The notes: a model not told the origin generated them from the letters alone. A stretch of 32,000 nt of DNA from Candidatus Heimdallarchaeota archaeon B3_Heim (GCA_003144275.1 NJBF01000001.1:90001-122000), one strand, 5' to 3'. Positions 4,987-21,531 are shown, counted from the first letter of the stretch. Program-made: numbers and translations.

Positions 4987-6174
4987 ATGATCATTGGTGT
5001 GATAGGATCAAGGGGAACAGTACCGACTGCAAATAATGCCACGACGTCATTTTTGGTTGACAATAAATTTTTATTTGAATGTCCTTCAGAAATCGTTCAG
5101 TCTTTCCATAGGTTCCAGAAGAATTGGCTAAAAGTAATTGAAACTACAAAAAGCAGTGAACTTGAGGCTCTAGGTAGGCCAACTTTCGGTAAGATCTCAC
5201 ATATTATCCTTTCTCATCTTCATTTTGATCATTGGGGGGGACTCCCTCACATTTTACATCGCATTATGCTACTAGAAAGAGAAAAACGAGAAACTGAGCC
5301 ATTAAATCTTGTAATACCTAAAGGTTCCACAATTCCTTTACAACAACGCATGAAACAGGCATTCTCGCTTGATGACTCAAGTTTTCCACTCCTAGATGAT
5401 GAATTTCTATATAGGTTCCTTGCTATAGAAGTAGGATCTATTATAACTAAAGTTTTGAAGATTAAAGTGATTGAGGTTGGAGAAATAATTACTCCAGAAT
5501 CAGGATACACTCTTAGCTGTGAACATAATTTTCATCTTCCACAAGGATCTGTTGCTTATAAAATTTCTTTTAACAAAGTGAAACTTGATGTGAAAAAAGC
5601 TCAACAATTAGGAATACCCTTCAATTCAACTCTCAGACAAATTGAGGAAAGTAACTACCCTATACAAATTGAAGGAAACTCCATCAAACGATCAGATATT
5701 TTTCGGGATATAAAGGTTATTCTTGGATATTCCGGAGATACTGCACTTAATCCTAAAATTCTTGATTTTTTTTCCGATTGTAACGTGATCATTCATGAAA
5801 CGACTTATTTAGATTATGATGATAGTTATCATCTTGACCTACACACTGACCTTCAATCATTAGTTGAGGCATTAGTAGACTTCAAAGATTTATTTCTCCT
5901 TTTACCCATTCATTTTTCAATCCGTCATACTTCTAAGGAAATTAAACAAGCAATAGATCGAATTAAGAAGAAAAACTTCATGATTAGTAATACGATGACC
6001 ACATTTATTATTCATGTGGATAATGAATCGATTGTTGCCTTACATGATCATTTTTGTCCGACAAGGCAATATTTCTCGTATTCGCTGACCTCTCTCTCTT
6101 ACAATCTTAAAAAGCCTCTCTCTCTTACTTCTTCAACCATCCTGTCCAGAACTATTTGCCAAATAGTTGTCTGA
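4987..6174 (+). CDS. rnz: Ribonuclease Z-like metallo-beta-lactamase; last 43 aa derive from a repeat element
   Basis: IGSRGTVPT (PxKxRN-loop equivalent), HLHFDH, flexible-arm-like KLDVKKAQQLGIP, YSGDT, HETTY, HT, HFSIRH. ATG 4987 with AAGGTG SD is preferred over TTG 4942. Confidence 0.8.
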   Translation: MIIGVIGSRGTVPTANNATTSFLVDNKFLFECPSEIVQSFHRFQKNWLKVIETTKSSELEALGRPTFGKISHIILSHLHFDHWGGLPHILHRIMLLEREKRETEPLNLVIPKGSTIPLQQRMKQAFSLDDSSFPLLDDEFLYRFLAIEVGSIITKVLKIKVIEVGEIITPESGYTLSCEHNFHLPQGSVAYKISFNKVKLDVKKAQQLGIPFNSTLRQIEESNYPIQIEGNSIKRSDIFRDIKVILGYSGDTALNPKILDFFSDCNVIIHETTYLDYDDSYHLDLHTDLQSLVEALVDFKDLFLLLPIHFSIRHTSKEIKQAIDRIKKKNFMISNTMTTFIIHVDNESIVALHDHFCPTRQYFSYSLTSLSYNLKKPLSLTSSTILSRTICQIVV

Positions 6175-6188
6175 CAAATTTAGTCATG
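6043..6188. mobile_element. Putative MITE/non-autonomous element, copy A (146 bp)
   Basis: Imperfect 22-bp terminal inverted repeats CATGATCATTTTTGTCCGACAA / TTGTCTGACAAATTTAGTCATG. Shares both ends and the subterminal block CATCCTGTCCAGAA with 9870-10231; internal 14-bp direct repeat CCTCTCTCTCTTAC at 6089 and 6115. Confidence 0.65.
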
Positions 6189-7860: not shown

Positions 7861-9162
7861 CTAGAATTTTCGTTTGGGGTTCTTAATCTTGATTTTCTTT
7901 TTGCAAATTGGACAAAACCCACGAATTTTCAGCCATTCTGCAAGGTGTGAATAATGTGCGGGTGATCCACACTCAGGACACCTTACTAATCTAGTTATGT
8001 CAGTAACTTTCGTTCGACATACTGAACAGTTCTCCTCAACTCTTTGATCAGTAGGATAAACAGATTCAGCTGATAGGGAAGTCGAACCGCCAGATAAAAC
8101 AGCTTCGATATTCTTCGCACGAACTTGGAATGATTTTGCAGCTTGCTTTGATTTCACTAGTTCTGCAGCTTGTCGATAAAGAGAAGCTGAGTAGGTAGGA
8201 TTATGTTCCTCATTAGCCAAAGCAGCCTCTGCGTATACAAATCCAGGTACTTCATCACCAAAGCTTTCGACAAGTTCTTCATAGAGAGCTACAGATTGAT
8301 TGAGATTTTTCTTTCTTAAGAGATCTCTAGCCGAATCCAAAACCTTCAATCGTCTATCAAATTCTTGTATTCTCTCTCTTATTTTTTGATTTTCGTTTTC
8401 AGTTTCTCCCTCGTTTTCCTCGGTTAAAGTACTTAATAGTCCATTTGTGATACTTAAGGAACGTCTAACTTGTTCAATGTCTCCGCTTGCGAAGCTTTTT
8501 TGAATATCACGAATATATCGATTTAATGCTTTTTTTGGATGACTCGTTGTAGAAAGATATTCTTTGGCTAATGAGTCAAAACCCTGCTTTTTTAATTCTG
8601 AAGCGGCTGCAATCAGCACAGTATTTGCTTCCTCTTCAGCTCCCATTGCTCTAAGAAGCTCTGAAGCCTCAATGAACTTTTGATTGGAATAAGCATGCCG
8701 AGCTAAATTCCTTATTGCTTGGTCACGATCATGGATAAACTGTGAGTTTTGATCAATAACTTGGATTGCTGCTGGAATAAAATCAGTTCCTCCAATATCG
8801 ATATAGACTTTTGCTGCTGCAAAAGGTTTTCTGGCAAAAATATATGCTTTAGAGGATTTGTGAGGATCGTTCTTTGCTCCATAAATCCGAGCCAGATTAA
8901 GAAAGGCTCTTTCGATGTTTCGAGGAGTAAATTTTCTTTCCATACTTCTGAGCGCTAAAATTTGAGAAGCTTCTGGTGTTCGCATTACCATATCTGCTGC
9001 CTGACGTATCGAAATTTTTGAATATATTTCCAAAGCGTCTAGATATCTTCCTTGCTCTTCTAAATTGATTGCATTTTGCACTCGTTTACCTTTAGAGCCC
9101 CAAATCTTACGTAAAAATATTATTACGACCCCAATTATAATTAGATATATTAATGTATCCAT
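7861..9162 (-). CDS. Membrane-anchored alpha-solenoid (TPR-like) protein with C-terminal RING-like zinc finger
   Basis: N-terminal hydrophobic helix LIYLIIIGVVIIFL; Ala/Tyr-rich helical repeats; C-terminal CSVC-x12-CPEC-x4-HYSH-LAEW-x6-CPIC. Confidence 0.8.
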   Translation of the reverse strand: MDTLIYLIIIGVVIIFLRKIWGSKGKRVQNAINLEEQGRYLDALEIYSKISIRQAADMVMRTPEASQILALRSMERKFTPRNIERAFLNLARIYGAKNDPHKSSKAYIFARKPFAAAKVYIDIGGTDFIPAAIQVIDQNSQFIHDRDQAIRNLARHAYSNQKFIEASELLRAMGAEEEANTVLIAAASELKKQGFDSLAKEYLSTTSHPKKALNRYIRDIQKSFASGDIEQVRRSLSITNGLLSTLTEENEGETENENQKIRERIQEFDRRLKVLDSARDLLRKKNLNQSVALYEELVESFGDEVPGFVYAEAALANEEHNPTYSASLYRQAAELVKSKQAAKSFQVRAKNIEAVLSGGSTSLSAESVYPTDQRVEENCSVCRTKVTDITRLVRCPECGSPAHYSHLAEWLKIRGFCPICKKKIKIKNPKRKF

Positions 9163-9563: not shown

Positions 9564-9869
9564 ATGTCTTCTTGGCAAACATTCTTCAATCAGCTTACAA
9601 AAACATCAAAACAGGACATTCAAGCATCTTGTGACATTATATGCCAATGTGAGAAAGGGAAATTGGTAGCTATAAATGGTTCTAACTTCAAAACCTATAC
9701 CAATTGTTCTATGAGTTTATTTTGCAGTATCATTCAGATAGACAAACATCGAGCTAAAACCTTTAATAATAGAATAACCATTATTCCACGGAAGTCAGGA
9801 ATAGATGAAGAAAATCCCAGTGATAAGATAATCTCACTTGATCATTTGCTAGAGAAAAAGGAAATTTAA
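9564..9869 (+). CDS. Hypothetical protein (101 aa)
   Basis: ATG with purine-rich AGAAGGA upstream; no recognisable family. Confidence 0.4.
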   Translation: MSSWQTFFNQLTKTSKQDIQASCDIICQCEKGKLVAINGSNFKTYTNCSMSLFCSIIQIDKHRAKTFNNRITIIPRKSGIDEENPSDKIISLDHLLEKKEI

Positions 9870-10231
9870 TCTGATCAAATTTGTCCGACAAAAGAATATT
9901 CTCATTTTCACCGCACTCTCTCTTTGAAAACCTTGAAAGGCCTCATCCCCTCAAATCCTTAAGAATCAGAGGTGATGAACAAAATATAGCTCAGTGTTTC
10001 TGGAATACCTCCCTCGTAACTAGGTTAGACGATTTACCCGTCAAAGGTGAGGGAGGGAAGATCAGTGGTTTCAGAAATTCGAAGAATCAAGAGAGAATGC
10101 CATCCCCCTAGTAACAAGTATTCCCTCGAAAACTAATTCATTAGTTGAATTGGTTTTTTCCGGATAGTGGATGTGTGACTCATCCTGTCCAGAATGCGGT
10201 TTTACTGCATTGTTTGACAAATTTAGTCATG
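9870..10231. mobile_element. Putative MITE/non-autonomous element, copy B (362 bp), highly structured
   Basis: Ends TCTGATCAAATTTGTCCGACAA / TTGTTTGACAAATTTAGTCATG. The first ~60 nt after the left end align with copy A. Same CATCCTGTCCAGAA block plus a 15-nt hairpin before the right end. Confidence 0.65.
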
Positions 10232-13917: not shown

Positions 13918-16101
13918 TTAACGATGTTTCGAAGATGTACGAATAGTGCTTACTGCTTTCTCAAAATCATCCATTCTTATTTTTGGTTTTTTTGTTTCAG
14001 TTAAATTTTGAATTTCTATATCAGTAGGTATTTGATTTTTCTCCTTGATTTGAGATAAAAATCGTGAAGTAGCATAAGAAGAAGCTAAATTCACAACGCC
14101 TTTCAAATCAGCTCCACTAAAACCATCTGTAATTTCTGCTAGAGAATCTATAGATATTTTAGAGTCTAATGGTTTGTTCTTAATATGAATCTGTAGGATT
14201 TTTCCTCTCGCAACAGAATCGGGTAATGGCAGCGTAATGATATGATCGAACCTACCTGGTCGTAAAACTGCAGGATCTATCATATCAGGACGGTTGGTTG
14301 CACCAATAACAATTATATCCACAATTTCTTCCAATCCATCCATTTCAGTAAGTAGGGTGGTAACTAATCTTTCAGAGCTGGGATTAGATTCATTTCGGAC
14401 AGGGAAAATCGTATCTATTTCGTCAAAAAATACTATGCATGGAGTAGTCAATCTCGCTTTCCGAAATATTTCTTGAATTGTTCGTTCGCTCTCTCCAATC
14501 CATTTTGAATGGATTTCAGCACCCTTAATAGAAATAAAATTTCTTGATGATTGATTGGCAACTGCTTTTACTAACAAAGTTTTTCCTGTACCTGGTGAGC
14601 CTGTTAGTAATATTCCTCGGGGTGGTTCACTTCCCATGTACCTATATAATGAGGGAAAAATTGTTGGCCACTCAATTGCCTCACGTAATTGTTGCTTTAC
14701 CTCATCTAATCCTCCTATATCATCCCAAGCTACAGTGGGAATATCTATAAGAACTTCTCGCAGTGCACTCGGTTTTATCCCCCTTAGGGCATTTTCAAAA
14801 TCTTCAGCAGTTACAGAAATTTGATTCAATAATTCTACGGAAATCGATTCTCCCCATACAATTTTTGGGAACAGACGTCTTATCGCTTTCATTCCGGCTT
14901 CTTTCGTTAAAGAAGAAAGATCGGCGCCAACAAATCCTTTAGTGTGTTCAACAATCTTACTCATATCGACATCTTCAGCCAATGGCATATATCTTGTTTG
15001 TATTTCGAGAATAACTTTTCTAGCCTCGGATGTTGGAACTGGAATCTCGATCTCCCTGTCAAATCGTCCAGGGCGCCGTAATGCAGGATCAATTGAATTT
15101 GGTCTATTAGTTGCTCCGATAACTATCGTTTCACCTCTCCCACTTAAACCATCCATTAAAGATAACATCTGTGAAACAACACGACGTTCTACTTCTCCTG
15201 AACCTTGATCATCCCTCTTAGGTGCAATACTATCAATTTCATCAATAAATATGATACTTGGTTCATTCTTTGCTGCTTCATCAAATATTTCTCTGATTTT
15301 CTGTTCACTCTCTCCGTAGAATTTTGACATGATTTCTGGCCCAGAAACATGCATAAAATGAGAAGCTGATTCACTAGCAACTGCTTTTGCTAGTAATGTT
15401 TTTCCAGTGCCAGGTGGTCCGTGTAATAGAACACCTTTCGGAGGATTTACTCCCAAGCGTTGAAAAAGCTCGGGATAACGCATGGGTAGTTCAACCATTT
15501 CTCTTAGATTTTTGATTGTTTCATCTAATCCTCCAATATCCTCATAGGAGACCCGTGGAATTGCTTCGCTTTCTGTTTGTTCCTTAAGAGAAGTTGATTC
15601 TTTCGAGTCGATTATAATTTCTGTTTCTTTGTTCACTACGACTGATTCACTGTCTGGCTGGACCTCTACAACTTTATACTCAAAGATATTGTCCATAGAG
15701 CCAAACCGCATTTGATCACCAATTGAAAGCGCTCGTCCTTGCAATTTCTGATTGAAAAATGCTTTGGCATTTCCAATTGTATTTGTTGAGGTAGAAAGTA
15801 GCGTAACTGCAGTCGCAGTAAGGGTTACGGCTTTCCGAATAGTTACATTATCATCTAAATGAACACCTGCATTCTGTCTAGTAATTCGATCAATTAGGAT
15901 GTTATCCAGTGATTCAACACTAGTATAGGTTGGCCATACAATTGCTGAAGTTTTTAACGAATTCTTTCCCTCTACTTCAATTACATCTCCAGATTGTAAA
16001 CTAAGTTGACTCATAATTCTTTTAGCAATACGGGCAATTCCTTTTCCTACATCACGGTATTGTGCTTCAGCAACTTTAAGCTGGTATTCATCAGATTTCA
16101 C
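13918..16101 (-). CDS. cdc48: Cdc48/VAT AAA+ ATPase
   Basis: N-domain plus two AAA modules ([20 protein letters not shown]; [19 protein letters not shown]). Confidence 0.97.
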
Positions 16102-19715: not shown

Positions 19716-20177
19716 TCATCCGACAGGCTTAATTTTATAGGGTATTTGTTCAATTTGATCTTCTAGAAGTGTAAACGCAATTAGTTTATTTGGATAGGCT
19801 CCAATAAACCATATATAGGGGAAAGGCCATAATTTCATAAAAGATTTATCTTTCTTTGAAGGGAAAAGATGAGCCTTAGCTGGATGAGAGTGAAAAAATC
19901 CAAGGAGAATTTTCTCTTGCTTCTGGAATATATCGATATATTTTACTAAAATTCCGTAATCAATGGAAAAACTATTTGGAGAGGAATCTAAGTTTTCCAT
20001 TTCAAAAAAATGATCAACTCTTATCTTTTTTCTTGTTATTATTCCAAATAAAGCTCCCACCTGCTCAATTAAACTCTTTACTTTAAGAAGATTAGTAATT
20101 GCGCTATTTACCTCGTTCATGATTTCTAATTCAGGTACTAGCATCGTTAATTCATTTTTACTCTTCAAGAATATCAT
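19716..20177 (-). CDS. JAB/MPN (JAMM) metalloprotease-domain protein
   Basis: EQVGALFG and GFFHSHP...PSKKD JAMM-like motif; overlaps the end of the upstream beta-CASP gene. Confidence 0.82.
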   Translation of the reverse strand: MIFLKSKNELTMLVPELEIMNEVNSAITNLLKVKSLIEQVGALFGIITRKKIRVDHFFEMENLDSSPNSFSIDYGILVKYIDIFQKQEKILLGFFHSHPAKAHLFPSKKDKSFMKLWPFPYIWFIGAYPNKLIAFTLLEDQIEQIPYKIKPVG

Positions 20178-21531
20178 GTGCTGTTAATATCTTAGCTTTA
20201 AATCCAATCCTTCTCAATTCCTCTGCATATCGTTTTTGTGCATTAGGTTCTCCATGAATTGCATAGATTTTTTGTGGTGTAGAATATTGAACCATTTGGA
20301 CTAGCCCTTCTAATGATGAATGCCCTGAAAATTGAAATTGTTTAATTTCAAGGTCTAACGAAACATCAAACACCTGGCCAAAACCGTTATCTAGTTTAAC
20401 GTTTTTCTCACCGTTTGCAATATCTGATCCCATAGTTCCCTCAACTTGATATCCTACGATATATAATCCATTACGTAGGTTGCCTCCACCCATTCGTAGA
20501 TAATCATAGACTGGTCCGCCTTCCATCATACCTGATGTTGTTAAAATTATACTTTGCTGGTCTCTGGTAATCAGGAGCTCCCGCTTCTTTGATCGTTTTG
20601 TTTTCATAGCTACATCATCTAATACTCGAATTCCCTCATGATCAAAAGGAGTTCTATATCCTTTATCCTTGAGCTCAATCAGAATGCGAGGAGAGACCCA
20701 TTTATCATTCATATACCGCTCATAGATGGCATTCATATCAAGTATCATACCATCAATATAAAGGGGAAATTTGTGAAGGAATGAATCGAAATCGCTTGCC
20801 AAATACGCTTGAATCTCTTGTGATCGACCGAGAGCAAAAGAGGGAATTATCGCTTTTCCGCCTCTTGAATAACAATTTAGTAAAGATTCCGTTAGATTTG
20901 ATGTGACCGTTTTTCGTCCTTCGATCCGTCTATTTGCATTTGTGGTCTCTGTTATTAATATGTCAATAGGGTCATCAGGATCTGGAAATTGGATTGGATC
21001 ATGGTAGGGAGTTTTCGCATCATTAAAATCTCCCGTATATAATATTCGGGTTCCTTCCCAATCAAGGAGAATATATGCACTCCCTAGTATATGGCTAGCA
21101 TCCAGAAATTCAGCAGTTATCCCACTCGCAATCTTGAATTTTTTACGATAATTATGAGTTTCAATTTTCATCATTGCAGTCTGTAGATGAGAGATACCAT
21201 AATGATGGGGTCCTTCAATTTTCAAATGATCTTTCCAAAGGATCTGAACAATATCCTTTGTTGGCGTTGTCATATGAATAGACCCACGAAATCCAGCTCG
21301 ATAAAGTGCTGGTGTATATCCAGAATGGTCAATATGAGCATGAGAAATAAGAATTGCATTCGTTTCATCAGCAAATCTGTCAACATCAGGAGCTGTGGAA
21401 ACACGGCCTGTTCTTCGGGGGTGTAGTTGAATCCCTGCATCAAACACCACTCTTCGATGATCGCTATCTGAGATCATCACACAAGATTTTCCCACGGAGT
21501 CAGAAGCGCCGAGTACACTAATTTCTAACAT
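20158..21531 (-). CDS. beta-CASP metallo-beta-lactamase ribonuclease, aCPSF-type without KH domains
   Basis: GKSC, FDAG, HAHIDH, ASHILGS, YTGDF, ETT, P.FALGRSQE, SGMMEGG, GYQVEGT, FSGH, HGE. Confidence 0.92.
   Translation of the reverse strand: MLEISVLGASDSVGKSCVMISDSDHRRVVFDAGIQLHPRRTGRVSTAPDVDRFADETNAILISHAHIDHSGYTPALYRAGFRGSIHMTTPTKDIVQILWKDHLKIEGPHHYGISHLQTAMMKIETHNYRKKFKIASGITAEFLDASHILGSAYILLDWEGTRILYTGDFNDAKTPYHDPIQFPDPDDPIDILITETTNANRRIEGRKTVTSNLTESLLNCYSRGGKAIIPSFALGRSQEIQAYLASDFDSFLHKFPLYIDGMILDMNAIYERYMNDKWVSPRILIELKDKGYRTPFDHEGIRVLDDVAMKTKRSKKRELLITRDQQSIILTTSGMMEGGPVYDYLRMGGGNLRNGLYIVGYQVEGTMGSDIANGEKNVKLDNGFGQVFDVSLDLEIKQFQFSGHSSLEGLVQMVQYSTPQKIYAIHGEPNAQKRYAEELRRIGFKAKILTAHDILEE

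Follow-up and report, generated by a model that had tools for sequence, protein, structure and literature searches.

Introduction

Eukaryotic RING-H2 E3 ubiquitin ligases such as RNF24, the ATL proteins (e.g., EL5), Arkadia, RNF165 and RNF38 match the C-terminal finger of P0001, the archaeal protein analyzed here, best in both sequence and fold, and have the core H-x2-[H/C]-L-x2-W-L-x5-CP-x-C-[K/R] in common with it. The canonical RING-H2 domain is of the C3H2C3 type with a C-x-H arrangement at ligands 3 and 4, whereas the finger of P0001 has the order C4H2C2. RNF24 and plant ATL proteins combine an N-terminal anchor with a cytoplasmic RING-H2 domain. P0001 has this layout in common with them, but RNF24 and the ATL proteins are devoid of a TPR solenoid.

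Archaea possess RING E3 proteins of their own. In Caldiarchaeum subterraneum, the E1/E2/srfp cascade has been reconstituted and the srfp exchanges I30Q, W58A and R69A were found to impair ubiquitylation; in the same work an extra Cys of srfp, termed C3B, was proposed as a likely zinc ligand (PMC5654768). A Helarchaeial E1/E2/RING E3 cascade has been reconstituted as well (bioRxiv 10.1101/2023.07.25.550441). The archaeal srfp proteins, which are the E3 components of Ub-E1-E2-RING operons, exhibit the same RING variant as P0001, with the extra Cys C3B in the CPxC knuckle, and also the same triad of hydrophobic residue, Trp and basic linchpin, the mutagenesis data applying to srfp only. However, srfp proteins are soluble, comprise 60-110 residues and are encoded inside ubiquitin operons, whereas P0001 has 433 residues, is predicted to be membrane-anchored, carries a TPR arm of 330 residues and is encoded away from ubiquitin genes.

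The succession of an alpha-solenoid and a C-terminal RING-like finger, as present in P0001, is also characteristic of subunits of HOPS/CORVET (Vps11, Vps18, Vps39, Vps41, Vps8), SEA/GATOR2 and IFT-A (IFT121, IFT122, IFT140, IFT144). Protocoatomer-type subunits have a beta-propeller, whereas P0001 has a membrane anchor instead and its similarity to them is of a generic TPR kind. The RING domains of HOPS, GATOR2 and IFT-A mainly act as assembly modules, and a RING fold by itself is therefore no proof of catalysis. A further comparable layout is that of bacterial LapB (YciM), in which a transmembrane helix is followed by cytoplasmic TPRs and a C-terminal zinc domain. LapB, however, binds zinc at one rubredoxin-type site and acts on LpxC together with FtsH, whereas a binuclear RING is predicted for P0001 and the two proteins show no sequence relationship.

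P0001 is encoded on contig 57 of a genome which, as the source names of P0001 homologues show, belongs to the Hodarchaeales in the Heimdall group (Heimdallarchaeia) of Asgard archaea. This order counts among the archaea known to be closest to eukaryotes, and its ubiquitin machinery has so far been studied only via small, soluble, operon-encoded RING proteins. No description of the TM-TPR-RING family to which P0001 belongs was found in the searchable literature. Eme et al. (2023) mention 'a few homologs' of Vps11, Vps16, Vps18 and Vps39 without detail, and a 2026 preprint names an alpha-solenoid 'RING-type E3 ligase' and a 'ciliary TPR' cluster among structural clusters common to Asgard archaea and eukaryotes (PMC13734099); these clusters might include the P0001 family. 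Here, we analyze the P0001 gene within a stretch of 32,000 nucleotides (the window) and arrive at the view that its product is a probable membrane-anchored RING-type E3 ubiquitin ligase. If this is true, a nearly universal, single-copy anchored RING ligase with a conserved TPR arm would imply that substrate-specific ubiquitylation at membranes, i.e., the logic of ERAD, ATL/RNF24-type and endosomal-sorting E3s, predates the eukaryotes.

Results and discussion

P0001 combines a membrane anchor, a helical arm and a zinc finger

The P0001 gene starts with ATG, and the bounds of the open reading frame coincide exactly with positions 7861..9162 on the minus strand. Sequence and AlphaFold2 modeling yield the following arrangement, listed from the N- to the C-terminus:

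7861..9162, minus strand: complete coding sequence of P0001, 433 residues plus stop (list of open reading frames, translation)
9106..9156, minus strand: predicted N-terminal membrane anchor, approximately residues 3-19, with a basic cluster RK..KGKR behind it (hydropathy, flank charges in 11 members, helix 3-36 in the model)
8095..9075, minus strand: predicted TPR-like alpha-solenoid, residues 30-356, about 18 helices (AlphaFold2 model, conservation, TPR Pfam matches of divergent members, generic TPR structural matches)
8038..8094, minus strand: linker, predicted to be disordered and poorly conserved, residues 357-375 (pLDDT below 50 at 359-375, column identity about 0.45)
7888..8037, minus strand: predicted RING-H2-like finger, residues 376-425 (ligand invariance, Pfam, profile against PDB, fold matches of the RING alone, 40% identity to an operon RING)
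7864..7887, minus strand: basic C-terminal tail, residues 426-433, IKNPKRKF (translation; rich in Lys and Arg in most members)

The AlphaFold2 model of the whole protein was built on an alignment of 42 sequences and has a mean pLDDT of 84.5. In this model a long first helix (residues 3-36) leads into roughly 18 more that end at residue 356; beyond the linker, residues 376-425 fold into a small domain of two strands and a helix. An earlier note on this DNA had described an anchor, helical repeats and a zinc finger, and this architecture is borne out by open reading frame, hydropathy, model and alignment alike. The repeat motifs it had picked out are present at residues 116-124 (AAKVYIDIG), 165-174 (EASELLRAMG) and 325-334 (SASLYRQAAE).

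The same note had proposed a single N-terminal signal-anchor. The 19-residue Kyte-Doolittle profile indeed reaches its maximum of 2.25 at residue 4, and every other window of this size stays at or below 1.6, such that P0001 has one strongly hydrophobic segment, located at the N-terminus, and no second one. The flank preceding the anchor is neutral in P0001 and carries a net charge of -1 or -2 in most homologues, while in the 11 family members inspected (P0001 and ten homologues) a charge of +3 to +6 is found on the 15 residues behind it. According to the positive-inside rule, this distribution of charges predicts an N-terminus outside and a C-terminus inside, with the bulk of the protein, i.e., TPR arm and RING, residing in the cytoplasm. 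As this agrees with the location of zinc fingers and E2 enzymes, we count the predicted topology in favor of an E3 function.

By profile and predicted fold the C-terminal finger is a RING

The finger of P0001 follows the pattern C-x2-C-x12-C-x2-C-x4-H-x2-H-x10-C-x2-C, with Trp410 ahead of the CPIC motif. The C4-H-H-C2 finger with a Trp before CPxC that had been read from the sequence earlier is thus present, and its eight candidate zinc ligands (C379, C382, C395, C398, H403, H406, C417 and C420) do not vary across 42 aligned homologues that are 36-96% identical to P0001. The same holds for V381, R383, E409, W410 and P418, and the linchpin position is taken by K421 in at least 90% of the sequences, with Arg as the alternative. 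Invariance of all eight ligands together with V381, W410 and P418 over such a range of identity is far beyond chance.

All 42 members are matched by the Pfam families Prok-RING_1 and zf-RING_2 (best E values 1.7e-6 and 1e-5, respectively). P0001 taken alone stays under both gathering cut-offs, with 22.1 versus 29.1 bits and 21.2 versus 27.3 bits; 28.7 bits are reached by a distant member (P0083) and 29.7 bits by an operon-encoded RING of the same genome. When the family profile was compared with the PDB, Arkadia (2.7e-6) was recovered along with RNF165/ARK2C, RNF24, RNF38 and RLIM down to 1e-3, and EL5 was included at values down to 6e-3. In these alignments ligands 5 and 6 coincide with H403 and H406, the Trp of Arkadia with W410 and its CPIC-R with CPIC-K. 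The family departs from the canonical C3H2C3 scheme in that Ser occupies the His-4 position. An extra Cys three residues ahead of ligand 3 forms a CPEC knuckle and is the candidate eighth ligand, such that the fourth ligand is displaced compared with canonical RING-H2 domains, CPEC taking the place of C-x-H.

A second AlphaFold2 model, which was built from the last 70 residues of P0001 and 20 relatives (pLDDT 78), contains strands at 29-31 and 38-40 and a helix at 41-50 (model numbering). Among the Foldseek matches listed for this model nearly all are RING domains, among them Arkadia, Rbx1, gp78, RNF4, RNF165, RNF12, EL5 and HRD1, and RNF165 superimposes with an rmsd of 1.2-1.5 over 47-48 columns. 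The C-terminus of IFT144 and GATOR2/SEA RINGs also occur among the fold matches. A search independent of Foldseek (VIA-wide) over 48,161 representative PDB chains returned RING/U-box structures for nearly all of its best 50 matches, with Z scores of 4.4-6.0. The scores are modest (Foldseek E values 2e-3 to 4e-2, Z no higher than 6), as is expected for about 50 residues, and the lists are uniform. Hence, judging from profiles and models, the finger of P0001 is most likely a RING rather than a PHD finger or zinc ribbon.

Putative E2-contact residues correspond to those of a characterized archaeal E3

Contact with an E2 would be made by V381, W410 and P418 of P0001, and K421 occupies the linchpin position. 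V381, W410 and K421 fall at I30, W58 and R69 of Caldiarchaeum srfp, and the spacing between them is 29 and 11 residues compared with 28 and 11 in srfp. Some drift is seen in the more distant family f7, in which the Trp has changed to Phe in L029 and L032 and is retained in L028; the linchpin position is occupied by Tyr or Asn in these three proteins.

The helical arm is a conserved TPR solenoid

Within the solenoid, conservation across the P0001 family is highest in the blocks 61-80, 141-180 and 261-320, and mean column identities of 0.80-0.84 are reached in blocks 61-80, 141-180 and 281-300. The arm is thus constrained unusually strongly for a repeat protein. Other Heimdallarchaeia contain a shorter relative of about 290-310 residues made up of a transmembrane helix, a low-complexity region, a single helical module and a RING. 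It has residues 99-190 of P0001 (BLAST 1e-8) as well as the RING in common with the longer protein. Since this module is kept in the shorter relative, residues 99-190 probably represent the functional core of the TPR arm.

The full-length family occurs almost only in Heimdallarchaeia

A search of 5.8 billion proteins returned 72 homologous full-length clusters (clustered at 90% identity), which are 35-96% identical to P0001 and all derive from Asgard metagenome-assembled genomes. Most are labeled Hodarchaeales, Hodarchaeota or Heimdallarchaeota. A few carry the source annotations 'E3 ubiquitin protein ligase', 'RING finger protein' or 'TPR repeat protein'; public annotation, in other words, already names some family members E3 ligases.

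The distribution was determined by a profile search of 400 Asgard genomes. Within the genus, full-length members are encoded by 20 of the 21 remaining genomes, the lone exception being a genome that is 71% complete, and this presence argues for a maintained function. They are also encoded in both other genomes of the order, in one further family of the class (E values 1e-26 to 1e-57) and in one genome of another class. Elsewhere the RING part alone is matched, and 271 of the 400 genomes contain such a match at an E value of 1e-10 or better. In a HMMER scan of 1.84 billion representatives 19 sequences were found at E values of 1e-30 or better, the full-length ones having 417-529 residues, while more than 1,000 further matches have only the RING in common with P0001; no full-length eukaryotic homologue was present among these representatives. 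On the basis of these sequence searches, the full-length family appears essentially confined to Heimdallarchaeia.

The genome encodes ubiquitin, E1 and E2 proteins

The earlier note had called for a search of the genome for ubiquitin, E1 and E2 genes. Ubiquitin, E1s and at least four E2s proved to be present: the genome has four UQ_con (E2) matches above the cut-off, two ubiquitin matches and five ThiF-type E1s. The lack of a ubiquitin system, which the note would have taken as an argument against its proposal, is thus not what was observed. Two gene clusters stand out. The cluster on contig 86 encodes ubiquitin, a ubiquitin-like protein, E1, E2, a JAB protein and a RING protein of 370 residues, and the cluster on contig 10 encodes E2, a RING protein of 70 residues, ubiquitin, E1 and a UEV-like E2. 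Each of the two clusters thus includes a RING protein, of the type also seen in P0001. The 70-residue operon RING is 40% identical to the RING of P0001 and its ligand pattern is identical.

A working model and its alternatives

Given the RING assigned by profile and fold, the conserved putative E2 contacts and the ubiquitin, E1 and E2 genes of the genome, we consider it probable that P0001 is a membrane-anchored RING-type E3 ubiquitin ligase. The earlier note had left the choice between a membrane-bound E3 and a proto-tether; the former half of its proposal gains support, while the latter is unsupported. Within the RING E3s of Asgard and other archaea, a class already known, P0001 most likely represents an uncharacterized family. 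As judged from the positive-inside rule, the single N-terminal helix would hold the protein in the cytoplasmic membrane with its bulk in the cytoplasm. The binuclear RING would dock a ubiquitin-charged E2 via V381, W410 and P418, and K421 would stabilize the closed E2~Ub state; both assignments are modeled on conservation and on the mutagenesis of equivalent residues in one archaeal RING E3. The TPR arm, which a flexible linker of some 20 residues separates from the RING, may bind a substrate or adaptor close to the membrane, and ubiquitin, E1 and E2 would be supplied by the separate ubiquitin clusters of the genome. Membrane or membrane-proximal proteins would be the likeliest substrates, and, more speculatively, marked proteins might be removed by Cdc48 and the proteasome or sorted by ESCRT. 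What tells against a ligase is that P0001 scores below the Pfam cut-offs, that its fourth ligand is displaced and its ligand spacing PHD-like, that Trp and linchpin vary in f7 and that ubiquitin, E1 and E2 genes are never adjacent; the modest fold-search scores and the structural role of the RINGs of HOPS, GATOR2 and IFT-A point the same way.

An unlikely competing explanation is that P0001 is a non-catalytic scaffold or proto-tether, in which the TPR-RING unit equals the C-terminal half of a protocoatomer-type protein (Vps11/18/39/41, SEA/GATOR2, IFT-A) and the RING mediates RING-RING assembly. This would fit with the IFT144 and GATOR2/SEA entries among the fold matches of the RING alone and with the Foldseek ranking of the whole model, which is headed by IFT-A subunits (E values 3.4e-6 to 5e-5). 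Their TM-scores, however, are 0.25-0.3, and P58IPK, OGT and LapB follow closely behind. On VIA re-alignment of the top 1,000 chains, Tom71, LGN, APC/C, IFT-A, COPI and EMC2 all scored between Z 11 and 14, a range that the tool flags as non-specific for repeat proteins, and a structure search of the ESM Atlas with P0001 retrieved generic TPR clusters only. A similar picture emerged from Pfam. TPR_WDR35 is matched by six of the 42 members (best value 2.4e-5, sub-threshold), further sub-threshold matches concern TPR_IFT122, TPR_IF140-IFT172 and TPR_GEMI5, and zf-Vps39_C is matched by three of 42 at 1.4e-3 or weaker, under its cut-off. All IFT and Vps matches thus lie below the curated cut-offs and inside the TPR clan, and divergent family members match ordinary TPR families better, at or above the cut-off. 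The Vps11, Vps18 and Vps41 families had no Pfam match among the 42 members. A specific kinship of P0001 with Vps11/18/41, IFT-A or GATOR2 thus found no support, Pfam, Foldseek, VIA and ESM Atlas together yielding generic TPR similarity only. Moreover, the modeled solenoid is preceded by nothing but the membrane helix, which starts at residue 3, leaving no beta-propeller, and neither an exhaustive scan over cluster representatives nor a separate, less telling search revealed a longer fused form of the family such as a propeller fusion. In the absence of a propeller and with similarity of the generic TPR kind, the comparison with Vps11, Vps18 and Vps41 tethers drawn in the earlier note is left unsupported. 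Sequence and model identify the arm as a TPR solenoid for which specific kinship to tethers or coats is not demonstrable. A purely structural RING would also not need invariant E2-contact residues. Should P0001 nevertheless prove inactive, it would provide an example of a structural RING outside the eukaryotes.

Less probable still is a role as a LapB/YciM-like membrane adaptor, i.e., an anchored TPR protein with a zinc module that hands its client over to a membrane protease or a different machine, ubiquitin playing no part. The layout is equal, with a TPR array between an N-terminal transmembrane helix and a C-terminal zinc-binding domain; LapB structures are among the Foldseek matches at E values of about 1e-3 to 3e-3 and a trace match to the NCBIfam LapB model was obtained. 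This match, however, is restricted to one family member and scores 15 bits against a cut-off of 670, and eight invariant ligands with a predicted RING/U-box fold are difficult to reconcile with a mononuclear, rubredoxin-type C4 site. In addition, the clients of LapB belong to lipopolysaccharide synthesis, a pathway absent from archaea. We regard it as very improbable that P0001 carries a PHD-like or other finger for binding of peptide, lipid or nucleic acid and serves as a receptor or regulator in the membrane with no role in ubiquitin transfer. The ligand spacing does equal that of PHD fingers, and Pfam zinc ribbons yield marginal matches to P0001 with E values of 0.02-0.1. Against this, ligand 6 is an invariant His (H406) instead of the Cys of the C4HC3 scheme. 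PHD fingers have a Trp two residues before ligand 7, whereas the Trp of P0001 is situated in the helix six residues before this ligand, as in RING-H2 domains. The significant sequence matches are all RING-H2 E3s, and the sole PHD-named entry among the best 50 structures, at rank 47, is PHF7 in complex with the E2 UBE2D2. No PHD reader and no zinc ribbon was among these 50, although absence from such a list does not exclude a fold. The earlier note had named a PHD or zinc-ribbon fold without E2 binding as one of two arguments that would weigh against its proposal; what emerged was RING-H2 from the profile and RING/U-box from two structure searches.

As a candidate ligase P0001 offers a practical entry point, being small and well predicted, with cognate E1, E2 and ubiquitin genes known in the genome. 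The partner of its TPR arm could reveal what Asgard ubiquitylation serves.

Genomic neighborhood

The earlier note had also remarked on two further genes of the window:

13918-16101, minus strand: Cdc48, 4.7 kb from the RING gene, separate transcription unit
19716-20177, minus strand: Prok-JAB protein, 10.5 kb from the RING gene, separate transcription unit

Both are present, but an operon partnership with the RING gene is not borne out, as they belong to separate units and the arrangement is collinear at the level of the genus. The JAB gene overlaps a gene for a beta-CASP nuclease. Genus-wide, 18 kb are collinear and comprise hsp20-cdc48-PAC2-regulator-TmcA, a small open reading frame, the RING gene and a gene for a CDP-alcohol phosphatidyltransferase, and this context therefore says little about function. 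The gene upstream of and co-directional with the RING gene codes for glutamyl-tRNA synthetase in family f7 and in G397. None of the lineages examined has a ubiquitin, E1, E2, JAB or ESCRT gene adjacent to the RING gene.

In the one genome from another class, genes for a CDP-alcohol transferase, a regulator, Cdc48 and Hsp20 are situated 3-8 kb from the RING gene on the same strand. The repeated proximity to an hsp20-cdc48 operon at 3-8 kb in two distant lineages hints weakly at a connection with the heat-shock/Cdc48 module. Anchoring, this proximity and the weak IFT-type TPR matches are hints only towards a wider and rather doubtful idea, in which the family constitutes the resident membrane E3 of Heimdallarchaeia, would ubiquitylate proteins in or near the membrane for extraction by Cdc48 and the proteasome or for ESCRT sorting, and would be a forerunner of ERAD-type or endosomal-sorting ligases. 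Its TPR-RING unit might, on this view, also have an ancestor in common with the C-terminal halves of subunits of HOPS, GATOR2 and IFT-A.

A shared heat-shock operator was considered and dismissed: the element ATTCACAA is repeated upstream of hsp20 and absent upstream of the RING gene, and its count across the window is at chance level. PADLOC and NCBIfam returned no family assignment and no defense association for P0001. The Rfam matches in the window are two tRNAs only.

Ubiquitin genes of the genome and the JAB gene of the window

The genome of B3_Heim carries two ubiquitin gene clusters, of which the one on contig 86 has all of its genes in the same direction. Their gene contents are as follows:

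Locus L035, contig 86: ubiquitin, a 165-aa ubiquitin-like protein, E1, E2, JAB/MPN and a 370-aa RING protein
Locus L036, contig 10: E2, a 70-aa RING protein, a KaiC-like ATPase, ubiquitin, E1 and a UEV-like E2

The earlier note had placed a JAB protease in the window, and we indeed found a Prok-JAB gene there, together with a nuclease gene:

19716-20177, minus strand: Prok-JAB gene
20158-21531, minus strand: beta-CASP/RMMBL (aCPSF-like) nuclease gene

Because the Prok-JAB gene overlaps the end of the nuclease gene by 20 nt, it is paired with an RNA-processing enzyme and not with ubiquitin genes.

Further RING proteins and shorter relatives of P0001

Two further proteins with a C-terminal RING of the type present in P0001, the product of the RING gene, are encoded in the same genome:

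L034 (contig 96), 2738-3748, minus strand: second membrane-anchored RING protein, 336 aa
L033 (contig 44), 3639-6797, minus strand: large RING protein, 1052 aa

The 336-aa protein consists of two hydrophobic helices, a helical middle part and the RING, which is 41% identical to that of P0001; its N-terminal part is unrelated to P0001. In the 1052-aa protein the RING is the sole recognisable domain, and nothing in Pfam matched the approximately 985 residues that precede it. A 'mini' form of the P0001 family (P0091, P0092 and P0095, about 256-310 aa) occurs in other Heimdallarchaeia. In P0091 and P0092 the TM helix is followed by a stretch that is basic or of low complexity and then by a single helical module, which corresponds to residues 99-190 of P0001; a linker that is acidic or rich in Ser joins this module to the RING. 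Unlike these two proteins, P0095 is devoid of the N-terminal helix.

Surroundings of the RING gene

In the genome G397, which belongs to another class, the RING gene is part of a set that is encoded on a single strand, spans 8.5 kb and echoes the surroundings of the RING gene in the B3_Heim window:

L030 (contig 12), 8980-17528: RING gene, GluRS, CDP-alcohol phosphatidyltransferase, ArsR-like regulator, Cdc48 and Hsp20

A small Cys-rich ORF lies divergent from the RING gene of the window, separated from it by about 400 bp:

9564-9869, plus strand: Cys-rich ORF, 101 aa

Its position is kept in 11 of the 12 loci from the same genus (37-86% identity); beside the distant homologues of the RING gene it is missing, and neither Pfam nor NCBIfam holds a family for it. 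The ORF could be either a lineage-specific partner or a mere syntenic neighbour of the RING gene. Two MITE-like elements in the window are delimited by terminal inverted repeats of about 20 nt (TGATCAAATTTGTCCGACAA ... TTGTTTGACAAATTTAGTCA), which are common to both:

6045-6188: MITE-like element
9872-10231: MITE-like element

The gap between the 101-aa ORF and the TmcA gene is mostly taken up by one such element.
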